Part shown: one piece after another, positions 11,486-24,216 of the stretch
How positions within the stretch are numbered: position 1 is the stretch's first letter
How the letters are laid out: every line of letters begins with the position of its first letter
From: Candidatus Baldrarchaeota archaeon
GTDB lineage: Archaea > Asgardarchaeota > Baldrarchaeia > Baldrarchaeales > DXJG01
NCBI GenBank assembly: GCA_019056805.1
Contig: DXJG01000001.1
Location: forward strand, 30,001-62,000
Direction of reading: 5' to 3'
Length of the DNA stretch: 32,000 nucleotides
Program-made: the position numbers and the translations under genes
The notes under the pieces: model-generated
Told to the model about the DNA's origin: nothing
Databases searched by the model: none
What the model saw: the letters and a program-made list of their open reading frames with translations, nothing else

Positions 11486-12302
11486 GCAGATTAGCATCTG
11501 TTATCATTCCAACTAGGTCTCCTTTAGCATTTACTACAGGAAACTGGTCAATATCGTATTTTCTCATCATTTTGGCGCACTCACTTACAGATACTTGTTC
11601 GGCTACGCTGATAACGTTGCTCACCATAACTTGGCTAACAGGTTTCTCAGGTAGTTTTAGCTTCTTTTTAGCTATGTAGATATAGGTAGATGCATCCCAT
11701 GACCATTTTGTTCCTTCGCTGGCAGCTGACATTTCAGAAACTTTACTTTCATCAACTACTTCGCTAAGAGAGATGAAATCGGTATCTGTAATGATTCCAA
11801 CGAGTTGTCCGTTAGCACCAAGGACAGGTAGTGCTTGTACATCGGCAAGTCGCATAACTATATAAGCAACGGGTAGGGGAGTTCCCTCCCAAACAGCAGT
11901 AATTTTTCTTTGCACATAGGGTTTAATAGGCTTATCAATGTTCATGCGAGAAATTGCTTTCCAAACAATATCTGCAACTGTTATGATACCAACAAGTTCT
12001 CCATTTTCAACAACAGGTAATCTACGAATATTTTTTTCGAGTAAAATCCTTGCAACCTCCTTAATATCCGTGTCTGGTGTGGTTACTATGGGATCTCGAG
12101 TCATAAGCATGGCGATTTGTTCTTCATCTGGTTTTAACATCAAATCGGTACGGGTGACTATCCCGACTAGCTCTTTAGTTCCCTTTTTCACTACGGGTAG
12201 TCCCATAACTTGGTGTTTATTCATTAACTCTAGTATATGCTCTCTGTTTCCTGGAACTTCGGCATATACTACGTTTCTGGTCATGACATTGCTGACTTTC
12301 AT
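11463..12302 (-). CDS. CBS-domain protein (four CBS repeats)
   Basis: Repeated LPVV...LVGI.T..D motifs. Confidence 0.9.
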   Translation of the reverse strand: MKVSNVMTRNVVYAEVPGNREHILELMNKHQVMGLPVVKKGTKELVGIVTRTDLMLKPDEEQIAMLMTRDPIVTTPDTDIKEVARILLEKNIRRLPVVENGELVGIITVADIVWKAISRMNIDKPIKPYVQRKITAVWEGTPLPVAYIVMRLADVQALPVLGANGQLVGIITDTDFISLSEVVDESKVSEMSAASEGTKWSWDASTYIYIAKKKLKLPEKPVSQVMVSNVISVAEQVSVSECAKMMRKYDIDQFPVVNAKGDLVGMITDANLLKALLEI

Positions 12303-12494
12303 AATTTTGCCTCCTGAAACAACTTTGAGAATAACAAATGTGGTGTATGCAACCCTTCATTAAAACTCTACAAAAATAAATGAAACAACACTTATAAAAT
12401 TTAACTCTTGACAAACATATTGTTATGTCGATGGTTTCTTTAGCATTTCAGTCGAGATAGTATAGAAACTAAACGGCGCCAAAATCGTAGAGTA

Positions 12495-12803
12495 TTATTC
12501 GACTGGACAACAGCAGGGTTTTTCTCCACACTTTGGACAGACTCCGTGATATTTTTCCGTGGCGGATTCTTCTAAATCTATGCCTAGAACATTACATAGA
12601 CTAGCAAGCCAGGCAAAAACGTCTCCGATTTCCTCTTTTACGCTTTTTTTATCACCATCTAATAGAGCTCTACTAAGTTCTCCGATTTCTTGTACAAGCC
12701 AGGCAAAGGTCTTGAACGGGCCACGCTTAGAATCTCTACGAAAATATAATTCTTTCATTAATTTTTGGAATTCTTTAATGTGCAATAGGCTGCCTCCAAA
12801 CAT
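12495..12803 (-). CDS. MazG-like nucleotide pyrophosphohydrolase
   Basis: QEIGEL...EEIGDVFAWL; C-terminal CPKCG..PCCC. Confidence 0.88.
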   Translation of the reverse strand: MFGGSLLHIKEFQKLMKELYFRRDSKRGPFKTFAWLVQEIGELSRALLDGDKKSVKEEIGDVFAWLASLCNVLGIDLEESATEKYHGVCPKCGEKPCCCPVE

Positions 12804-12882
12804 TTACTCCAAATTTATTGTTCAGTGAGTCTTTATGAATTATTGGCAACTGCTAAGTTTTACTGTTAAAAAATATAAAGTG

Positions 12883-14315
12883 TTATTTTTTAAGACTACA
12901 GTATTCTCGAATATTAATGTACTCGTAGGCATCGGTTAGACTATCGAAACAGTAGTGAACTTTTTGGAAGGCTTTTCTAAATTCGACAACATCTTTAGCA
13001 ACATCTTTGGGATTCTCTTCATTAAATACGATTCTTTTAATAAATTCTGCTATTTCCTCCATGTCGGATTCTTTCATTCCTAATCTAGTAACTTCACTAA
13101 CTCCTAGACGAATACCTCCAGGTCGTTTATAATCTCTTCCAACTCTTTTGTCCCATGGAAGCAAATTCCGATTAATTATAATGTTGGCTTCCTCTAATTT
13201 TTTCTCAACTGTCATACCGTCCTTCAGCGGTGTTTCACTAATGTCTACGAGAATCGTATGTGATTCCGTAAATCCTTTATGTTCAGCGAGAACCTTAAAC
13301 CCTCTTTCGTACAAGGCTTGGCCTAAGGCTTTAGCGTTTTTAATGATTTGACCGGCATACTCGCTACCAAAAGCAAGCATCTCTGCAAAGGCTACAGCTT
13401 TTGGTAGCAGCAGAATTATCTGCTGCTATTCCCAGCAACTAGGTGCAAATGATGATTGCTCATGGTAGACGGGAAAGCTGCTTTTTTGAGTTCCTCAGCA
13501 TATTTGCTATGCGAGAGGACCGTTCCTCCTTGTGGTCCTGGCAATGTTTTGTGTGTACTTATCGTGAAAACGTCCGCCCCTTCTCTTAAGGGGTCTTGGA
13601 ATTTTCCACCGGCAATAAGTCCTGCAACGTGTGCTCCATCGAAGTGTATATATGCACCGATTTCATCTGCAATTTCTCTAATTTCTTTTACTGGTTCTGG
13701 AAATAGAAATACGCTGGCTCCCATTATGAATAATTTTATATGTTTTCCTTCCTTTGCGAGTTTTTTAACTCGTTTTGCTGTTCCATCTACATCGATGTTC
13801 ATTTCTTTCTCGTCAAAGGCAAAATAGTGTACTTTTAAGCCCCTGACTTTCCCCGCCGTGCCCCAGAGTTTTTTCTTTGCATAGCTTATGTGGCCGCCCG
13901 AGGGAATTGAAATACTCATTATATGATCTCCAGGTTCGGTAAAAGCTGAATATACTATTAAATTTGCAATCACTCCGCTTATGGCGCGGACATCAGCAAA
14001 TTCTGCTTTAAATAATTTTTTAGCTAACTCAATAGCTATTTCTTCTACTTGATCTATATAGATACATCCAGCATAAACGCGTTCGCCGGGCCAACCTTAC
14101 CGGTCCCAGTTTAACTGGGACTTTCGGCGTATCTGTTTCCGAAATCGCTGCATAAACATTCTCGAACTGCTGGACTTGGAATGTTTTTCCGACCCAGCCT
14201 TCTATGCTGGGTTTTCGGAAGCTATTAGTGGAATTGTGCTTCGGAACCACTGATGATGTTCTTTTAATAGTTCAAATATTTTATCGTAGTATTTCTTTGC
14301 TTCTTGTTCTTCCAT
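12883..14315 (-). CDS. glyA: Serine hydroxymethyltransferase; 4 exons (14315-14214, 14185-14123, 14096-13429, 13399-12883), 449 aa after splicing
   Basis: LIASEN, RYAEGWPG, GGHIS, DGAHVAGL, STHKTLPGPQGG, SNHHLH, GIRLG. 1433 nt minus 83 nt of introns = 1350 nt. SD GGAGGG upstream of ATG 14315. Confidence 0.93.
13400..13428 (-). other. Relaxed BHB intron 3 of glyA (29 nt)
   Basis: 9-bp stem AGCAGCAGA/TCTGCTGCT, helix TGGG/ACCA with one G.A mismatch; excision gives GGG AA|A GCT (AGKA). Confidence 0.8.
14097..14122 (-). other. BHB intron 2 of glyA (26 nt)
   Basis: Helix GCCG/CGGU, bulges AAA/AAG, 7-bp stem GTCCCAG/CTGGGAC; excision gives GCC GAA|GGT TGG (YAEGW). Confidence 0.9.
14186..14213 (-). 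other. BHB intron 1 of glyA (28 nt)
   Basis: Helix TCCG/CGGA, bulges AAA/AAA, 7-bp stem ACCCAGC/GCTGGGT; excision gives TCC GAA|AAC ATT (SENI). Confidence 0.9.
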
Positions 14316-14725
14316 TTCTTTCCCTCCTGGTATAATTATGTTAAAATTATTTCTTGAACTTATCAATATGTTTGTTTTAGCGGTAGTTAAATTCTTGGTC
14401 CCGTGGTTTATATAAGCTATCCTTTGCTATTTTTAAAGGGAAACTCATTTGTATATGCCTCTTTCTCTCTACGTATTTGTTCAATTATAAATTTAAGTAA
14501 TGAAGCAATTTGTAGGCCTTTTTGTGGATATTATTAGGTGATTGGTTTTGTGGTTAGGTCGATTTACAAAACTTAAGATGATTCTGGTATAGTTTCTTTC
14601 TCTCTTTATGTTACAATCTTAGTTTATGCGTGTACAAAGAACCCTGCTTGTTGTGTTAAAAGAAAGATTAATATTTTGAATTAATTTAATAATTTTGACA
14701 ATTTAAGTATTTGAGGTGTAATTTA

Positions 14726-14920
14726 ATGTCTCGCAAATCTAAGAAGAGAAAGAAAGAAGGCCCTATGCCTGTAACTGGTGCTGGTTTGATCAGGTTCTTT
14801 CAAGATGAAACTAGAGGTATAAAAGTAGGTCCACTTGCAGTTATTATCCTTTCGTTCTTCTTAGTTATTCTTGTGGGACTAGCTTGGTTAAGGTCTTATG
14901 GATTAATACCGTTTCCATAA
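14726..14920 (+). CDS. sec61b: Preprotein translocase Sec61-beta subunit
   Basis: GAGLIRFFQDE..GIKVGP followed by one TM helix. Confidence 0.9.
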   Translation: MSRKSKKRKKEGPMPVTGAGLIRFFQDETRGIKVGPLAVIILSFFLVILVGLAWLRSYGLIPFP

Positions 14921-15534
14921 GTCTCGTTATTTTCTCGCTTGAATGATTTAACTGGTATTATTATTAAGCCGGTTTTCAATTTTTTTATTTCATCCTCGGT
15001 AAGTTTTTCTTTTAGAACTTTATCTTTCCGTGAATGTACTATTGCACTGTTTCCGAATGGATCTTCAATTATTACTGTGACCCTTTCTTTTCCAATTTTT
15101 ACGTTTTCTATTGTGTTCAGGATTTTGTCACATTTCTTTTGTTTGATCTTTTCTGTTGACCATCTTTTAGCCATTTCGACGACGTTCTTTATTCTTTCTA
15201 GTACGCCTTCGATATTCGTTATGAAGGGAGTGGATGCCGGTCCGGGTTCTACTTTGACTCCTAGTTCAGGAACTCTTATAGTGGCTGTTGAAGACTTAAT
15301 TACCTTTGCGTATAAGTCTTGAGGTGTTTCTACTTTTAGGGAATATCGTGAGGGGCCCCTTTCTGATGTGCAAATTACATCACTATGTTTAAATCCGCAG
15401 GATTTACATTGAAGGGTCAATAATAAGACTTCTCCGAAGTGAGGAACTGTAGTTGTTGTTATCCTTTCTATTAGTGTTTTTCTACTGCAGATCGGGCATT
15501 TAGAAACATTAACTTTAAGTGTATTTTCTGTCAT
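14896..15534 (-). CDS. ZPR1 zinc-finger domain protein
   Basis: CPIC...PHFGEV...CKSCGFKHSDV; TNIEGVL; DPFGNS. Confidence 0.92.
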   Translation of the reverse strand: MTENTLKVNVSKCPICSRKTLIERITTTTVPHFGEVLLLTLQCKSCGFKHSDVICTSERGPSRYSLKVETPQDLYAKVIKSSTATIRVPELGVKVEPGPASTPFITNIEGVLERIKNVVEMAKRWSTEKIKQKKCDKILNTIENVKIGKERVTVIIEDPFGNSAIVHSRKDKVLKEKLTEDEIKKLKTGLIIIPVKSFKRENNETYGNGINP

Positions 15535-15582
15535 TTTACTTTACACCATTTACCTATTACAACTCTAACTTCATTGTGAAGC

Positions 15583-17445
15583 TTGGAGGATACAAGTTTG
15601 AGTAAGGTTGAAGAAATTGTAAAGATTTATGGCAAACTTTTCGCCATACCAAGTATGGGAAGGCTTTTAATTGTTAGCTTAGCTGTGAGTATTTTTGTTG
15701 CTTTTTTACCTAATGTTTCATTTTACTTTAAAACCTCTGAGTTAATAGTACTTTTATTTATTTTGTATGAAGGTATTGCAGTAGTGTGGGGCTCATTAGT
15801 TATTTCAGCGTTCATTAGCTTGCCTATAGTTAAAAGAAAAACTCGTATTCTAAATTTTAGGAGACTTATCGCATTAAATCTTTTTTCTGTAATTCTTTTA
15901 TATGCTGTCTATGGTTTGCCAATTTTAGTAACGATTGGTAATTATCGTGTTGCTATAATTTCTCTTTTAATTGGTGTAGCTATAGCTTTCTCTTTTAGAA
16001 TAATAGCATGTTACTCCATTTCACAGCTATCTTTTATGGAATCTGTTATTGTTTCTCTTATTCAGCCATTGCTTCTCTTGTTTTTAAGAGAAGAGTTGTT
16101 AATTTTCTTTTTCCCTTCTAGTTCTCCGATTCCGATAATTAGACCCTATGTTATTCCTCTATTCATAATTTTGATTATTTTCCTATTCTCAACGATCATG
16201 TATCTTAGAACCGTAAATAATAGTGTAAAATCGTCTCTGGGTATTGGCGGTCTAGAATTTCTTAGAGCCTTTATTGCCGAATGGACCGAACAAGAAGGAA
16301 AAACTATGGAAACACTTTTAACTAAGATTGGTGAGGAAAGAAATTTGCCTGTAGCAATTATTTCTTTTAAAAACTTGAAAAACCAAATAAAAGCTATTTT
16401 ACTGGTTCCAGCAATTCACCCTGGACCATTTAAAACGATTGGTAGTAGCATTTTACCCTACTTCTTGGCTAGAGAACTAAAACAAAGAATGGGCGCAGAA
16501 GTGCTTGTTCTCCATGGGCCATGTGATCACTCCCTTAATTTAACATCAAAGACACAGCTTCAATACGTGTTAGATGAAATTATAAAGAATTTAAGCGATA
16601 TTAACTATGTGGATGGAGCAACTCCATTAGTATGCGTCAAGAAAGAAGATGTAACTGTAAAGACTCAAACTTTTGGTGATCTCGCTTTAATCATTGCAAC
16701 TCGCTCACCTCTACCAATGGACGATGTAACTCTTGGTGTGGGACTTTTAGCCTGTGAGATTGCCGAAAAAGAAGGAATCAAAAAAGCCTTTTTTGTTGAT
16801 GCTCATAACTGTATAGGTGAAACCTTCGAAGATGTATTAATTGGTTCTGAACTTGCTGAAAAAATTATTTCAACAGCTCAAGAAAGTATAAAACAAATGC
16901 TGCGTGTAAATGTGAGTCCATTAAAGATAGGAGTCGCAAAAGGTAGAGATATAGACATTTCGTTAGAGGAAGGATTGGGGAGTGATGGTGTATCTATTTT
17001 ACTTATGGAGATCAAAGACGATAGGTATGCTTACGTTATCTTTGATAGCAATAATTTAGATATTGGTCTTAGAGAAGAAATTATTGATCGTTTAAAGAAG
17101 AATTACAAAATAAGAGAAGTAGAGGTTATGACCACCGATACTCATGAAGTGAATGCCGTATCCCCAAGTAAAGGGGGATATATTCCGCTGGGAAAAGAAA
17201 CAGACCATGAAAAAATAATTTCGTATGTAGTCAATCTAGTAAAGCAGGCAGAGGAAAACCTGGAAGCAGTAAAAATAGGAACAAAGATAATAAAGATACA
17301 AAAACTAAAAGTCATAGGGGAAAATCAGGTATCAGTATTAACATCGGCTGTCTCAACTGGATATACAATAGCGAAGAATAGCGCGCTTGCTGTGTTTATT
17401 CCAACACTTATAGCTTCCATGCTACTCGCCATGTTCTTTATCTAG
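15583..17445 (+). CDS. DUF2070 family membrane protein
   Basis: N-terminal TMs; HPGPF, LHGPCDH, DAHNC, DSNN, TTDTH. Confidence 0.88.
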   Translation: MEDTSLSKVEEIVKIYGKLFAIPSMGRLLIVSLAVSIFVAFLPNVSFYFKTSELIVLLFILYEGIAVVWGSLVISAFISLPIVKRKTRILNFRRLIALNLFSVILLYAVYGLPILVTIGNYRVAIISLLIGVAIAFSFRIIACYSISQLSFMESVIVSLIQPLLLLFLREELLIFFFPSSSPIPIIRPYVIPLFIILIIFLFSTIMYLRTVNNSVKSSLGIGGLEFLRAFIAEWTEQEGKTMETLLTKIGEERNLPVAIISFKNLKNQIKAILLVPAIHPGPFKTIGSSILPYFLARELKQRMGAEVLVLHGPCDHSLNLTSKTQLQYVLDEIIKNLSDINYVDGATPLVCVKKEDVTVKTQTFGDLALIIATRSPLPMDDVTLGVGLLACEIAEKEGIKKAFFVDAHNCIGETFEDVLIGSELAEKIISTAQESIKQMLRVNVSPLKIGVAKGRDIDISLEEGLGSDGVSILLMEIKDDRYAYVIFDSNNLDIGLREEIIDRLKKNYKIREVEVMTTDTHEVNAVSPSKGGYIPLGKETDHEKIISYVVNLVKQAEENLEAVKIGTKIIKIQKLKVIGENQVSVLTSAVSTGYTIAKNSALAVFIPTLIASMLLAMFFI

Positions 17446-18903
17446 GGGCGAGATATTTGAAGTTAATTTATTGTACTTCTTAAGATATAGATAATACTTG
17501 TAAGAAGCATATAAAACGTCAATGGCTCTTTCAGGTGTTGGATAACATGGTATTCCTAATTCTTCAACTTTTTGAACATCTTCCATCACGTATTCGCCTA
17601 AGGGGACACAGAAAACCAACGGTTTAGGTGTTTTTACATCCTCTAATATTTCAGCTACCGCCTTACCTACTTCAATGACTTTAAGAGCTGGCACTATTAA
17701 GGAAATACCATTAACCGTTTCAGTTCTCATCAGCATTCTGGCACTTTCAACATACTGTTCTGTTGTAACTAGAAAGCTTAAATCGAGTGGATTAAAGTTA
17801 CTTGTCCATGGAAAAGCGATTCCTTTAAGTTTTTTTAAGGTCATATTTGGAAGTTTAGCTATCTCTAATCCAAGTAAAACCGCTCTATCCACGGATAAAA
17901 CTCCCATGGATCCGGCATAAGTTACAACGGCGAGACCTTTATCTTTCATTAAGGGTTGTAAAGCAAAAAATCTGACGAAATCAAATAATTGCTCCAAGCT
18001 CTCAGCTCTTATGGCCCCACTTTGTTTGAAAGCAGCATCATAGATTTCCACGTTTCCAGCTAGACTTGCAGTATGAGAAGTGACTGCTCTCTTCCCTTCT
18101 TCGGTTCTTCCGCCTTTTAATATCACAATAGGTTTCTTCAAGGCGGCTTTTTTAAGTGTTCTTAAAAACTTTCTGCCGTTACTCACGCCTTCAAGGTACA
18201 TTCCTATAACTTTAGTATCGGGATCATCTGCAAGATATTCTATTGTATCTGCTTCATCTACATCAACTTTATTTCCGATTGTAACAACTTTGCTAATCCC
18301 CCATCTAGGACCGTATATCTCTAGCATGCCGGCTGCAAAAATGCCAGCTTGCGTTATGAAACTTATACCTCCTTTTTTAAGATTCTTAACTTTTGCGAAG
18401 GTTGTTATAAGATTTCTGTGGGTATTTACTACTCCTGCACAGTTTGGACCAATAATTCTAATGTTGTTTTCTTTAACGATTTCGCGTATTTTTTTCTGAA
18501 GTTCTGCTCCCTCTCCTCCTATTTCAGCAAATCCACCGGCTTCAATAATAACAGCTTTAACATTTTTATTAACGCATTCCATCAAGATCTTAGGAATGAT
18601 TTTTGCTGGAACAATAAGTACGGCAAGGTCAACTTCATCTGGAATGTCTAAAATGGACTTATAACATTTTAATCCTAATATTTCATTTAAATTTGGATTA
18701 ACAGGATAGATTTTCCCTTGAAATCTTCCTTCAACAAGATTAAGTAGGACATTATATCCAAGCTTGCCTGGTGTTGCGGACGCTCCAATTACTGCAACAG
18801 ATTTAGGCTCAAAAAAGTATTTTATGCTTTCATACACCGCTACGCCTTCACGTTTAAATGTTTCAGCCTCATGTCCTATTTCGACGGAAGATATGTCGAC
18901 CAT
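17422..18903 (-). CDS. acdA: ADP-forming acyl-CoA synthetase alpha subunit
   Basis: PKSVAVIGAS, YPVNP, GPNC, SHTASLAG (phospho-His motif). Confidence 0.9.
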   Translation of the reverse strand: MVDISSVEIGHEAETFKREGVAVYESIKYFFEPKSVAVIGASATPGKLGYNVLLNLVEGRFQGKIYPVNPNLNEILGLKCYKSILDIPDEVDLAVLIVPAKIIPKILMECVNKNVKAVIIEAGGFAEIGGEGAELQKKIREIVKENNIRIIGPNCAGVVNTHRNLITTFAKVKNLKKGGISFITQAGIFAAGMLEIYGPRWGISKVVTIGNKVDVDEADTIEYLADDPDTKVIGMYLEGVSNGRKFLRTLKKAALKKPIVILKGGRTEEGKRAVTSHTASLAGNVEIYDAAFKQSGAIRAESLEQLFDFVRFFALQPLMKDKGLAVVTYAGSMGVLSVDRAVLLGLEIAKLPNMTLKKLKGIAFPWTSNFNPLDLSFLVTTEQYVESARMLMRTETVNGISLIVPALKVIEVGKAVAEILEDVKTPKPLVFCVPLGEYVMEDVQKVEELGIPCYPTPERAIDVLYASYKYYLYLKKYNKLTSNISPLDKEHGE

Positions 18904-19331
18904 GAGCTTCCCTCCGAATTTAGCAAGGAGGGAAACAAGAACAAGAAATATAAATTTTTCATAGATAGATATTTACATCTACGTTGGAAAAGATGACATA
19001 AAACTACATAAATTATTAAATCTATCTAACATTTGTAAAAATATTTTTTGTAAAAGAAAATATTTTATTATATTTCCAAAATATAGTGCAAGTTTCAAGA
19101 ACTTAACTCGTAACAAAGTGATTGATAAAAATCGACTAACTTCAAATCTCTGAATAGCCAATATAAGATAAAAATCTAGCAAATATCAATAAAAACATCT
19201 AGAAACAATAGAATAAAGATCCAACGTCGCAACTTCCATTTTTTTTAACCCAATAAATATAAATAAACACGTATAGTACAACATATCAACAAGAACTTAA
19301 ATGAGAAAAAACGTCTAAAGAGGGAAAAAGA

Positions 19332-19942
19332 ATGAAGGAGAAAGGAAAAATAATAGAAATACGAAGTCATGGTCGAGGTGGACAAGGTGTGGTTATTTTT
19401 TCTGAACTCTTGGCAAAAGCTGCATATTTAGATGGCTATATGGCGCAGTCGTTCCCATTTTTCGGCGCAGAAAAGGCAGTTCTTCTCTGAAAGGACTGCC
19501 TCTGCAGAGGCGTGGAGCCCCCTTAATGGCTTTCACACGAATTAGTGATAAAGAGATTTTGTTAAGAAGCCAAGTTTATAATCCTGATATCGTTGTTGTT
19601 TTGGACCCAGTTATCTTAGAGCTAGTAAATGTCACTGATGGATTAAAAGCTGATGGATGGTTGATTGCAAACACTCCAAAGAAACCAGAAGAACTTGGTT
19701 TAAACGGGTCTTTTAAAATCGCAACCGTTGATGCTACCGGCATTGCATTGGAATTAAATCTAAAAGTTGCAGGTTTCGCTGTAGTCAACACACCGATGTT
19801 AGGAGCGTTTTCCAAGGCTACGAAATTAGTGTCACTTGAATCGGTCAAAAGAGTTATTTTAGAGGAATGGAAAGGTGAACTAGCGGAGCTAAATGCCAAA
19901 GCAGCTGAGCTAGCCTTCGAAAAAACTATTGTAAAAGTTTAG
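19332..19942 (+). CDS. porG: 2-oxoacid (pyruvate-type):ferredoxin oxidoreductase gamma subunit; 2 exons (19332-19472, 19508-19942), 191 aa spliced
   Basis: HGRGGQG, FGAE|RRGAP, NTPMLGA. 611 nt minus 35 nt = 576 nt. Confidence 0.92.
19473..19507 (+). other. Canonical BHB intron of porG (35 nt)
   Basis: Helix GCAG/CTGC, bulges AAA/AGA, 11-bp stem; excision gives GCA GAA|AGG CGT (AERR). Confidence 0.92.
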
Positions 19943-19984
19943 TTACTTTTCTTTATTTTGTTAAATATTGAGGTGGGCTAGCAT

Positions 19985-20647
19985 TTGAAAGTAGTTTGCG
20001 TCATTCCTGCTTTTAACGAAGAGCAGTACATCTGCGACGTCGTTAAAGGAGCCAAGCAATTTGTTGATGTCGTAGTGGTTGTAGATGACGGTAGTATAGA
20101 TAACACCTACAATAAAGCTAAAGAATGTGGAGCTGTCGTACTTAAGCATGAGAAAAATTTAGGCAAGGGTGCTGCTTTGAGGACTGGTTTTCAATATGCA
20201 ATGGAGAATGGCGCCGATGTTATTGTGACATTAGATGGAGATATGCAACATAACCCGCTTGAAATACCTAAGTTTCTTGAAAAAATTAGAGAAGAAGCAG
20301 ATCTTGTCATTGGCTCTCGTTTTCTGGAAAAAGTTAAAGGAATGCCTTTGCAGAGACGATTAAGTAATTTCATTACTACTAAGATTTTAAATAAAGTTTT
20401 CAACGTTCCTGTGACGGATTCTCAAAGCGGTTTTAGAGCTTTTAAAAGAAAAGTTTTGGAGAAAGTTACATTTAAGGATAATAGGTATGGTGCGGAAACG
20501 GAGATTCTTATAGAGGCCAAGAGAAAGGGATTTAATATAGTTGAAGTTCCTATTTCTGTGAGATATGAGGGACAAAAATCTAAGATCCGTCCTGTGAGAG
20601 AGACTTTTAGTTGGATTTGGTTAATTATTAAAAAATGTTTTGATTAA
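19985..20647 (+). CDS. Glycosyltransferase family 2 (polyprenol-P sugar synthase-like)
   Basis: IPAFNEE, VDDGS, GKGAAL, DGDMQH, DSQSGFR. Confidence 0.92.
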   Translation: MKVVCVIPAFNEEQYICDVVKGAKQFVDVVVVVDDGSIDNTYNKAKECGAVVLKHEKNLGKGAALRTGFQYAMENGADVIVTLDGDMQHNPLEIPKFLEKIREEADLVIGSRFLEKVKGMPLQRRLSNFITTKILNKVFNVPVTDSQSGFRAFKRKVLEKVTFKDNRYGAETEILIEAKRKGFNIVEVPISVRYEGQKSKIRPVRETFSWIWLIIKKCFD

Positions 20648-20659
20648 TGTAGGTTTATT

Positions 20660-21589
20660 TTACTCTGTCTCTATCATTTTTGCTATGTTTTTCCAGTTTT
20701 CATCTACCCACCTTTGGATTTCTTCTATATCTTTGTCTGTCAATCCTCTGAATCTTCCTTGAAGTTTTAAGTATTCTTCAACCGGTTTTCTCTTGCTGGG
20801 ATCTAGGAATCTTTTACTTGGACCTGATAGTTTGAATTTTCCATGATCAATCTCATATAGTATCCATAGACCTGTTTCTACTGCAAGTTTAGACATCTTT
20901 ATTGTTAGTTTTGAGTCATATCGCCATCCAGGTGGACAGGGTGATAGTATATGTATGTATCGTGTGCCTTCTCCTTTCATCTCTTTAGCCCTTCTTACTT
21001 TTTCATATAGATCCTTTGGGTATCCCGGAGTTGCTGTTGCAACGTATGGTATGTGATGAGCTGCCATAATCATTGGCATGTCTTTTTTATGTTCTTTTTT
21101 ACCTAGTATTGGGGTGGTTGTTGTTATTGCTCCATATGGCGTTGCCCCGCTTCGTTGGATCCCAGTGTTCATGTACGCTTCGTTGTCGTAACATATGTAT
21201 ATGAAGTCTGTTTTTCTTTCTGCTGCTCCTGAAAGGGCTTGGATTCCTATATCTGCTGTTCCTCCGTCTCCAGCCCATCCTACAACTGTGATATCCTTTT
21301 TTCCTCTAGCTTTTAGTGCTGCTACCACGCCCGAAGCTGCAGCCCCGGTTGCTTCAAAAGCCATATTTAACACTGGTACACCTATGCCTGATCTTGGATA
21401 CAGTCCTTGGATAACTGCTGTGCAGCATGCTGGTATAACTAGTACTGTTTTCTTTCCTAGAGCTTTTAGTACATGTCTTAATGATAGTATTGCTCCACAT
21501 CCTGGACAGGCTGCATTTCCCGACATTACATATTCTTCTTCAGGTAGACCTAGTATTGTCACGTTTATCACCTCACTAATCCATACCAT
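20660..21589 (-). CDS. porB: 2-oxoacid:ferredoxin oxidoreductase beta subunit
   Basis: ACPGCG, GDGG (TPP binding), DNEAYMNTG, SPCP; the start may be GTG 21562. Confidence 0.92.
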   Translation of the reverse strand: MVWISEVINVTILGLPEEEYVMSGNAACPGCGAILSLRHVLKALGKKTVLVIPACCTAVIQGLYPRSGIGVPVLNMAFEATGAAASGVVAALKARGKKDITVVGWAGDGGTADIGIQALSGAAERKTDFIYICYDNEAYMNTGIQRSGATPYGAITTTTPILGKKEHKKDMPMIMAAHHIPYVATATPGYPKDLYEKVRRAKEMKGEGTRYIHILSPCPPGWRYDSKLTIKMSKLAVETGLWILYEIDHGKFKLSGPSKRFLDPSKRKPVEEYLKLQGRFRGLTDKDIEEIQRWVDENWKNIAKMIETE

Positions 21590-23388: not shown

Positions 23389-23673
23389 GTGTCTGAAGAA
23401 AACGTAGTTTTTATAGGAAACAAACCCGTGATGAACTATGTGCTTGCCGCTGTAACGCAATTGAATAGCGGAGCAGAAGAGGTAGTTCTTAAGGCTAGAG
23501 GGAGAGCTATTAGTAGAGCTGTCGATGTAGCAGAAATTCTAAGAAACAGATTCATGACGGGATTAGAGGTTAAAGACATAAAAATAGGTACAGAAACTAT
23601 TGAAACATCTGAAGGAAATGCAGCTAACGTATCAGCTATAGAAATAGTGTTATCAAAAGCAAAGAAAAAGTAA
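23389..23673 (+). CDS. albA: Chromatin protein Alba
   Basis: [12 protein letters not shown]...[15 protein letters not shown]. Confidence 0.95.
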
Positions 23674-23706
23674 ATATTTCCCTCCTCTTTTCTTTTATTA
23701 AAATGA

Positions 23707-24216
23707 TTATTGAATAACATAGCCCAGTTTTTTAACCAATTCTCTTCTTTCAAGTTTTTCGTCTTCATTTTCAATCTTTGTGGCTGAAGTTCCATCTACA
23801 ATACCAAGTACAGCGGTACCAAGACTAGTTTCTGCAACAATAGCCTGTACTGGATTTCCTGTAGCTGCAAACACGCGGCAGACTCCTGGATGATTTTTTA
23901 TAGCATTTAGTACATTTATAGGAAATGCTCCTTTAAGAGCCACTACGAAAATGTGCCCACCGCCAAGTTTTAGACATGCTTCTGAAGCTATTTTTTCTAG
24001 CTCCTTATCGTTTCCGGTTACACGTGTCAATCTAGGTTTAGCTTCATTCATAGCTACCGCGCATTTAATATTTGGAGCACATGTCAAGATAGTTTTATAT
24101 AAGTCGTCTGTAGTCCATACCGAAAAATTTCCCTGGCCAATTACTAATTGATACTCCTCCTTAGGATCCCCTAAATCAACTAATTTAATCTTAACATCCA
24201 CTCTACACACCTCCAC
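23707..24216 (-). CDS. Adenosine-specific kinase family (DUF355) protein
   Basis: IGQGNF, AMNEA, FPINVLNAIK, ATGNP, LGIVDG. Confidence 0.85.
   Translation of the reverse strand: MEVCRVDVKIKLVDLGDPKEEYQLVIGQGNFSVWTTDDLYKTILTCAPNIKCAVAMNEAKPRLTRVTGNDKELEKIASEACLKLGGGHIFVVALKGAFPINVLNAIKNHPGVCRVFAATGNPVQAIVAETSLGTAVLGIVDGTSATKIENEDEKLERRELVKKLGYVIQ

Follow-up and report, generated by a model that had tools for sequence, protein, structure and literature searches.

Four short inserts in the glyA and porG genes of a Baldrarchaeota archaeon as probable bulge-helix-bulge introns of mRNA

How full-length proteins can be produced from two housekeeping genes that are each broken into pieces by short hairpin inserts is the question raised by a 32,000-nucleotide (nt) stretch of DNA from Candidatus Baldrarchaeota archaeon (GCA_019056805.1, contig DXJG01000001.1, positions 30,001 to 62,000), referred to below as the window. 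In the list of open reading frames for positions 12000-21000 of the window, before any editing, the gene for serine hydroxymethyltransferase (SHMT), glyA, was present in four pieces and that for the gamma subunit of 2-oxoacid:ferredoxin oxidoreductase (POR), porG, in two pieces. The four inserts separating these pieces are most probably bulge-helix-bulge (BHB) introns spliced from the mRNA, a reading to which we assign a probability of about 0.88.

The coordinates of glyA and porG are those of the window, glyA being read on the minus strand and porG on the plus strand. Along the coding strand the four inserts share a common layout, in which a stretch of 4 exon nt (H1) is followed by a 3-nt bulge (B1), a hairpin of 7-8 bp, a stretch of 4 intron nt (H2) and a second 3-nt bulge (B2). 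B1 is composed of two exon nucleotides and one intron nucleotide, and the last nucleotide of B2 belongs to the exon. This layout is the register of the archaeal BHB motif, in which cleavage takes place after the second nucleotide of each bulge. The features of the two genes are as follows.

glyA, serine hydroxymethyltransferase: 14315..12883, minus strand; predicted spliced open reading frame of 449 aa.
glyA exons: 14315-14214, 14185-14123, 14096-13429 and 13399-12883 (including the stop codon), minus strand.
glyA putative intron 1: 14213-14186, minus strand; 28 nt, phase 0, at the LIASE/NIPSP junction; H1 UCCG 14219-14216, B1 AAA 14215-14213, H2 CGGA 14191-14188, B2 AAA 14187-14185; hairpin with the 7-bp stem ACCCAGC/GCUGGGU and a loop at 14205-14199 that contains an in-frame UAG.
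glyA putative intron 2: 14122-14097, minus strand; 26 nt, phase 0, at the RYAE/GWPGE junction; H1 GCCG 14128-14125, B1 AAA 14124-14122, H2 CGGU 14102-14099, B2 AAG 14098-14096; hairpin with the 7-bp stem GUCCCAG/CUGGGAC and the loop UUAAA; in-frame UAA.
glyA putative intron 3: 13428-13400, minus strand; 29 nt, phase 2, splitting the Lys codon of HLVAG-K-AVAF; H1 UGGG 13434-13431, B1 AAU 13430-13428, H2 ACCA 13405-13402, B2 AAA 13401-13399; hairpin with the 8-bp stem AGCAGCAG/CUGCUGCU and the loop AUAAUU; in-frame UAA.
porG, 2-oxoacid:ferredoxin oxidoreductase gamma subunit: 19332..19942, plus strand; predicted spliced open reading frame of 191 aa.
porG exons: 19332-19472 and 19508-19942, plus strand.
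porG putative intron: 19473-19507, plus strand; 35 nt, phase 0, at the FFGAE/RRGAP junction; H1 GCAG 19467-19470, B1 AAA 19471-19473, H2 CUGC 19502-19505, B2 AGA 19506-19508; hairpin with the 7-bp stem AGGCAGU/ACUGCCU and a 14-nt loop; in-frame UGA.

The initial annotation of this DNA had placed inserts of 28, 26, 29 and 35 nt in the two genes, and scripted deletion bore out both the lengths and the positions. The junctions it had predicted (TCCGAA/AACATT, GCCGAA/GGTTGG, GGGAA/AGCTGT and GCAGAA/AGGCGT) were all correct, and cutting after the second bulge nucleotide restored the reading frame and the conserved motif at 4 of 4 sites, as proposed. The description of the inserts as GC-rich holds as a contrast between the inserts (41-54% G+C) and the genome (35%), and its meaning is limited to that contrast. 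Each of the four inserts contains a stop codon that is in frame with the upstream exon (UAG, UAA, UAA and UGA, respectively), so that an unspliced mRNA would always give a truncated product; these in-frame stops are kept in congeners despite divergence of the surrounding loops. As a side observation, GAA forms the end of three of the four 5' exons of the window and is followed by an A-rich bulge.

The predicted geometry was largely recovered. Bulges of 3 nt are present at all four sites, and 4 of 4 central pairs can be formed in glyA intron 1, in intron 2 (one G-U) and in the porG intron, but the claim of a 4-bp central helix fails for glyA intron 3, which holds only 3 of the 4 pairs. The inner helix h' measures 7-8 bp in all four inserts. 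When RNAfold was run on about 55-63 nt around each site, the minimum-energy folds of intron 1 and of the porG intron contained the central helix, the 5' bulge and the intron stem, and that of intron 3 contained 3 central pairs in a register shifted by one nucleotide. The fold z-scores were -4.1 for intron 1 and -3.35 for intron 3. When the whole genome was scanned for strict BHB motifs, 336 candidates were obtained on 3.85 Mb of strand; because the strict motif is this rare, its occurrence in the single protein-repairing register at 4 of 4 breaks is not a matter of chance. Searches of the window with Rfam and ARAGORN gave no matches. The scan also flagged a pairing of 9-10 bp between ACCAAAAGC and GCUUUUGGU (window about 13406-13360), just 3' of intron 3, which was taken as chance because it is not conserved in congeners.

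The host genome is a metagenome-assembled genome (MAG) of 1.92 Mb in 18 contigs, 91% complete, and encodes two tRNA_int_endo proteins of 184 and 178 aa, together with one RtcB. The two endonuclease genes lie on contig 9, at 197.9 kb and 13.8 kb. The catalytic Tyr/His/Lys pattern was recognized by eye in the 184-aa endonuclease, while the 178-aa protein lacks the His, suggesting that the two are the alpha and beta subunits of EndA. Asgard archaea are assigned an (alpha-beta)2 EndA whose loop makes it tolerant of relaxed motifs, and this type is described from TACK archaea as well (PMC5829648). The endonuclease predicted here, which is accompanied by RtcB, would accept relaxed motifs with the broad specificity described there. 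ARAGORN detected only 18 tRNAs in the whole genome, 12 of them with introns. Most of the tRNA genes are probably too interrupted for recognition, and the proportion of intron-bearing tRNAs (12/18) fits a lineage that uses introns heavily, some Asgard lineages being reported to have heavily interrupted tRNA genes (bioRxiv 10.64898/2026.10.13.758758).

Among the alternatives, the one that survives best, though improbable, is that the inserts are removed from RNA by a pathway other than EndA/RtcB, or that EndA cleaves some of the four and not the others. Two features speak for it, the near absence of an outer helix and the imperfect central helix of intron 3. The cuts that restore the proteins, however, coincide with the canonical EndA positions in all cases, and the two-subunit EndA of this genome is of the type that accepts relaxed motifs (PMC5829648), RtcB being present as well.

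The BHB introns predicted in the window were then compared with those of relatives, namely two genomes of the same genus (G001 and G003) and six metagenome contigs of the Joint Genome Institute (JGI), found with the exon-2 peptide pattern, which gave a total of nine glyA sequences. All three glyA inserts and the porG insert are located at identical sites in both congeneric genomes, and all three glyA inserts are present in the six JGI contigs, one of which also carries porG with its insert. In all other families of the phylum covered by the search, the genes are uninterrupted. Within the nine glyA sequences, the paired positions of the introns varied at 3 of 52 and the intronic bulge positions at 1 of 9, while 15 of the 22 loop positions were variable; for the exons, variation was found at 312 of 449 third codon positions and at 91 of 898 first and second positions. 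The helices are as constrained as the positions that determine amino acids, and the loops drift like synonymous sites. This pattern indicates that selection acts on the RNA structure of the inserts.

The details for each insert follow the same pattern. The central helix is invariant across all the relatives. Intron 1 of glyA is 27 or 28 nt in length in the nine sequences, with a variable loop and retained helices, and intron 3 has invariant helices and four loop variants. Intron 2 is 26 or 27 nt in the relatives; pair 2 of its stem is UA, CG or UG, including one compensatory change from UA to CG, and 100% of the cells were paired as compared with 12-60% when the partners were slid. In the three congeners the length of the porG insert is 35, 33 or 34 nt with fixed junctions, and the stem of this insert shows three compensatory pairs between congeners (AGGCAGU/ACUGCCU versus AGGCGAC/GUCGCCU). 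The shuffling control for covariation is weak, with 4-6 distinct sequences, and the observed score was reached in 31/500 and 168/500 shuffles. Since the lengths of the inserts vary and the exon junctions are fixed, only excision at sites defined by structure would tolerate this variation.

The same variation bears on translational recoding, by which the ribosome would pass the inserts through programmed frameshifting or bypassing as in phage T4 gene 60, on an mRNA that is never spliced. The inserts do resemble the gap of gene 60 in being stable hairpins with an in-frame stop soon after the break. Nevertheless no single frameshift fits a porG insert of 35, 33 or 34 nt in congeners and glyA inserts that vary by 1 nt. 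In porG, take-off would be at GAA, which does not match the last triplet of the intron, CAG or CAU; at glyA intron 1, a ribosome that landed on the GAA downstream would be out of frame. Recoding also leaves unexplained the conserved 4-bp helix between exon and intron and the two 3-nt bulges at every site, as well as in about ten other genes, and we regard it as slightly less probable still than removal by another pathway.

The spliced SHMT aligned without gaps at all three junctions with 13 uninterrupted Asgard orthologues, with restoration of the motifs LIASE/N, RYAE/GWPGERVYAGC and HLVAG/K (the NHHLH.VAG motif ends at junction 3). The spliced PorG likewise aligned without gaps at its junction with 11 uninterrupted orthologues, with restoration of FFGAE/RRGAP. 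In porG the match to the Pfam POR profile is divided exactly at the junction, profile positions 1-32 ending at the last residue of exon 1 and positions 33-173 beginning at the first residue of exon 2; in glyA, exon 3 corresponds to positions 51-283 and exon 4 to positions 299-399 of the Pfam SHMT profile, in this order. The ratio of non-synonymous to synonymous substitution (dN/dS) for spliced glyA was 0.016-0.024 at dS values of 0.5-2.2, with all exons constrained. Even exon 2, which consists of 63 nt or 21 codons, showed 6-9 synonymous and 0 non-synonymous changes. Judged by these ratios, the exons of spliced glyA are under strong purifying selection.

This level of constraint is at odds with the view that glyA and porG are pseudogenes hit by small palindromic insertions, their functions being supplied by paralogues. 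Candidate substitutes are indeed encoded in the host genome, an intact SHMT-like paralogue of 388 aa (G000 C9:421945-423111; L002:1495-2661) and a second gamma-type gene (C9:312639-313034). An intact second copy accompanied by decay of the interrupted gene had been named at the outset as the sign of such a state; the SHMT-like paralogue exists, but no further lesions were found in the nine glyA sequences. With a dN/dS of 0.02 and a near-saturated dS in every exon, with inserts that are single-copy and conserved with compensatory changes, and with paralogues of old origin (about 50% identical) that occur also in Asgards with an uninterrupted main copy, the pseudogene explanation is very improbable. 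The SHMT-like paralogue has the pyridoxal phosphate-lysine motif and a divergent N-terminal motif (HRYVNPHNVYGG versus RYAEGWPGERVYAG), and similar second SHMT copies occur in other Asgard genomes. Two overlapping minus-strand open reading frames at 23436-24216 were considered as a second broken gamma gene upstream of porD and rejected, one being antisense to an Alba-like gene and the other an unrelated open reading frame. As to its surroundings, porG lies on the plus strand, where a glycosyltransferase gene follows it. The genes porD-porA-porB (23107-20660, minus strand) run convergently to porG, which does not head their operon.

The presence of the inserts in DNA was examined in Logan contigs from another sample of the likely source study (X2) and from two other studies (X3 and X4). 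All four inserts were found in the X2 contigs, and glyA introns 1 and 2 as well as the porG intron in the X3 and X4 contigs, with 0 differences in either case. Neither an intron-less form of the DNA nor a contig joining across an insert was seen among the contigs of X2, X3 and X4. An assembly or sequencing artefact, which might be considered for a window taken from a MAG although no positive sign of it was found, is hardly credible in view of these contigs (all four inserts in X2, three in X3 and X4) and of the diverged versions in two genomes and six JGI contigs. Each of the introns is single-copy in the genome, which rules out a repeated family of mobile hairpins.

The initial annotation had viewed the four inserts as part of a multi-gene system of BHB introns, a view that gained support from introns found independently in other genes and from a different porG intron in a related genome. 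The genome-wide scan for BHB motifs gave clean inserts in aIF5B, pcm, pyrG, rpoN, atpD and a GTPase-like gene, and further candidates are listed with them (coordinates of the host genome, G000).

aIF5B: C10:39163-39195; putative intron of 33 nt; removal restores EAGGI/TQHIGA.
pcm: C17:48225-48255; putative intron of 31 nt; removal restores QTISAP/HMVA, with contiguous Pfam matches 3-59 and 61-208.
pyrG: C9:155043-155012; putative intron of 32 nt; removal restores KIDP-Y-LNVDPGT, with contiguous Pfam matches 1-40 and 42-265.
rpoN: C10:32511-32551; putative intron of 41 nt; removal restores IIPVR/CFTCGK.
atpD: C6:168431-168466; putative intron of 36 nt; removal restores VPPTR/MELL.
GTPase-like gene: C17:158971-158950; putative intron of 22 nt; removal restores MGAAGRD/FHNFN.
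Two further hairpins flagged by the structure scan: C17:208556 and C17:208921.
A candidate of 67 nt: C10:44562-44628; central helix CUAG/CUAG and bulges AAA/AAA, joining two coding-like frames (U173/D84).

The last of these could be a longer intron or could reflect two adjacent genes. The related genome (G004) belongs to a sister family within the same order, and its porG carries a 28-nt BHB intron at VLN/TPM (contig 56; L119 1474-1501, minus strand) and none at the site interrupted in the window. Removal of this intron gives a full-length open reading frame with 67% identity to PorG of the window. The location of the G004 intron at a different codon indicates that intron positions turn over within the order. 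That the organism splices mRNAs routinely, as first proposed, is partly sustained by about a dozen introns in about ten genes, but the word is generous for a genome of about 1.9 Mb.

Two observations on these introns may be added. Elsewhere in the genome, the sequence CTAG is part of the stem or the central helix of many introns (for example UCUAGCCAGA, CAGCUAGCA, CGGCUAGAG, CUAGCAGCUA and the central helix CUAG/CUAG), at C10:39163, C17:48225, C9:155043, C17:208556, C9:4557, C6:168431 and C10:44562. The introns of glyA, porG, aIF5B, pcm, pyrG and rpoN are located within the most conserved motifs of the respective proteins, namely LIASEN, RYAEGW, FFGAERRG, EAGGITQHIG, QTISAPHM, KIDPYLNVD and the Zn-ligand Cys of RpoN. 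Such placement could result from a preference of insertion sites, from survival of introns at places where drift of the exon half of the helix is prevented, or from a bias of detection.

Several points weigh against the identification of the four inserts as spliced BHB introns. At each of the four sites the outer helix between the exons measures only 1-2 bp, and the 3' bulge is not closed as in the strict hBHBh' form; the motifs are therefore relaxed (HBh'-like), falling outside the strict definition and within the relaxed one. The central helix of glyA intron 3 contains a G.A mismatch, leaving 3 of 4 pairs, and this is invariant in the 9 sequences. In the RNAfold structure of intron 2 the H1 strand was paired with a segment of the downstream exon and not with H2, and the fold z-scores were modest for intron 2 (-2.75) and for the porG intron (-1.76). 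The relatives are few and closely related, which keeps the counts of covariation small, and the contigs of the independent studies (X3 and X4) did not reach glyA intron 3. For a statistical test over the genome, BHB candidates were counted if their removal at the canonical cuts would fuse two coding-like frames, and the counts were compared with shifted-cut controls. Strict motifs gave 6-14 candidates and the controls 2-17, which is no excess, and under loose motifs the background dominated, every control giving about 10,000 and about 2,500 hits. The controls are contaminated by neighbouring co-directional genes and by alternative registers of true introns. Given no enrichment over the controls, the genome-wide claim depends on the individually verified cases; the coding-score filter rejected even glyA introns 1 and 2 because their exons are short, so that a frame-based census undercounts multi-intron genes. 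Finally, a search for RNA runs containing glyA listed none, and cleavage and ligation themselves, as well as the enzymes responsible, are inferred from DNA sequence.

The following course of splicing may be proposed for the glyA and porG transcripts. In the primary transcript, the 4 nt of the H1 exon stretch before each insert would pair with 4 nt near the 3' end of the insert to form the central helix, on which the intron hairpin of 7-8 bp would stack, leaving two 3-nt bulges. The heterotetrameric (alpha-beta)2 EndA encoded on contig 9 would cut after the second nucleotide of each bulge, and RtcB would ligate the exons, the intron probably being freed as a small circle. Full-length SHMT and PorG would then be made only from spliced mRNA, translation of unspliced mRNA ending at the intronic stop. 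As a wider and rather doubtful proposal, mRNA splicing by EndA/RtcB might form a standing layer of gene expression in this Asgard lineage, with introns gained and lost at differing sites between sister families and with the first multi-intron protein genes of archaea. Because the in-frame stops are conserved and the introns lie inside the most conserved motifs, splicing may even provide core enzymes with a checkpoint or switch, for instance by coupling their synthesis to the state of tRNA processing.

If the four inserts are indeed spliced introns, pre-mRNA splicing in archaea would extend beyond cbf5 to a new phylum, to new genes and to a gene with multiple introns. Four introns in two neighbouring housekeeping genes, as part of about a dozen, would then be present in an Asgard archaeon, and Asgard archaea are the closest prokaryotic relatives of eukaryotes. 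The tRNA-splicing machinery would be able to sustain protein genes that are interrupted, and their introns would turn over from one related family to another, a situation that would bear on how intron-tolerant expression could arise ahead of the spliceosome and on the origin of RtcB- or TSEN-dependent mRNA processing in eukaryotes. Gene callers would report such genes as fragments or pseudogenes, and as a consequence the metabolic reconstructions and completeness estimates of such MAGs would lose SHMT, POR gamma, aIF5B, CTP synthase and RNA polymerase subunit N. With short, defined substrates and two EndA genes, the claim is directly testable in vitro.

Within the literature that could be searched, experimental support exists for a single archaeal pre-mRNA BHB intron, that of cbf5 in some Crenarchaeota. 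The 2009 study by Yokobori (PMC2738675) states that pre-mRNA splicing in archaea had no confirmation outside cbf5, though some genes had been predicted. A literature search for mRNA introns in Asgard archaea or Baldrarchaeota, which did not cover subscription journals, yielded tRNA introns only. The cbf5 intron is reportedly present in Aeropyrum, Sulfolobus and others, and is said to go back to work by Watanabe in 2002 and Yoshinari in 2006. The introns predicted here resemble that of cbf5 in belonging to a lineage with a hetero-oligomeric EndA and in being misread by gene calling as frameshifts. In contrast, they occur in glyA, porG and about ten more genes, in an Asgard archaeon and not in Crenarchaeota, with several genes per genome, three introns in glyA and different sites in sister families. 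While splicing of cbf5 has been experimentally confirmed, that of glyA and porG is predicted from sequence.

With the BHB introns of tRNA and rRNA, including the multiple non-canonical tRNA introns of Thermoproteales and Asgard archaea (bioRxiv 10.64898/2026.10.13.758758), the four inserts share an identical motif, the cut positions and, by inference, the enzymes. The tRNA genes of the lineage are heavily interrupted, and gains of introns appear to be repeated and variable in site, as for the introns considered here. The difference is that the host is an mRNA and that each intron has an in-frame stop. Because the H1 strand and two bulge nucleotides are coding sequence, protein and RNA structure constrain the same bases. 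A more distant parallel is offered by the splicing of HAC1/XBP1 mRNA in eukaryotes, with cleavage by Ire1 and, in metazoa, ligation by RtcB. In that system, as in the one predicted here, a short intron is removed at stem-loop sites independently of the spliceosome, with joining by a tRNA ligase or RtcB and with alteration of the reading frame. HAC1/XBP1 splicing differs in employing Ire1 and not EndA/TSEN, twin 7-nt loops and not the BHB motif, and in being a regulated stress response.

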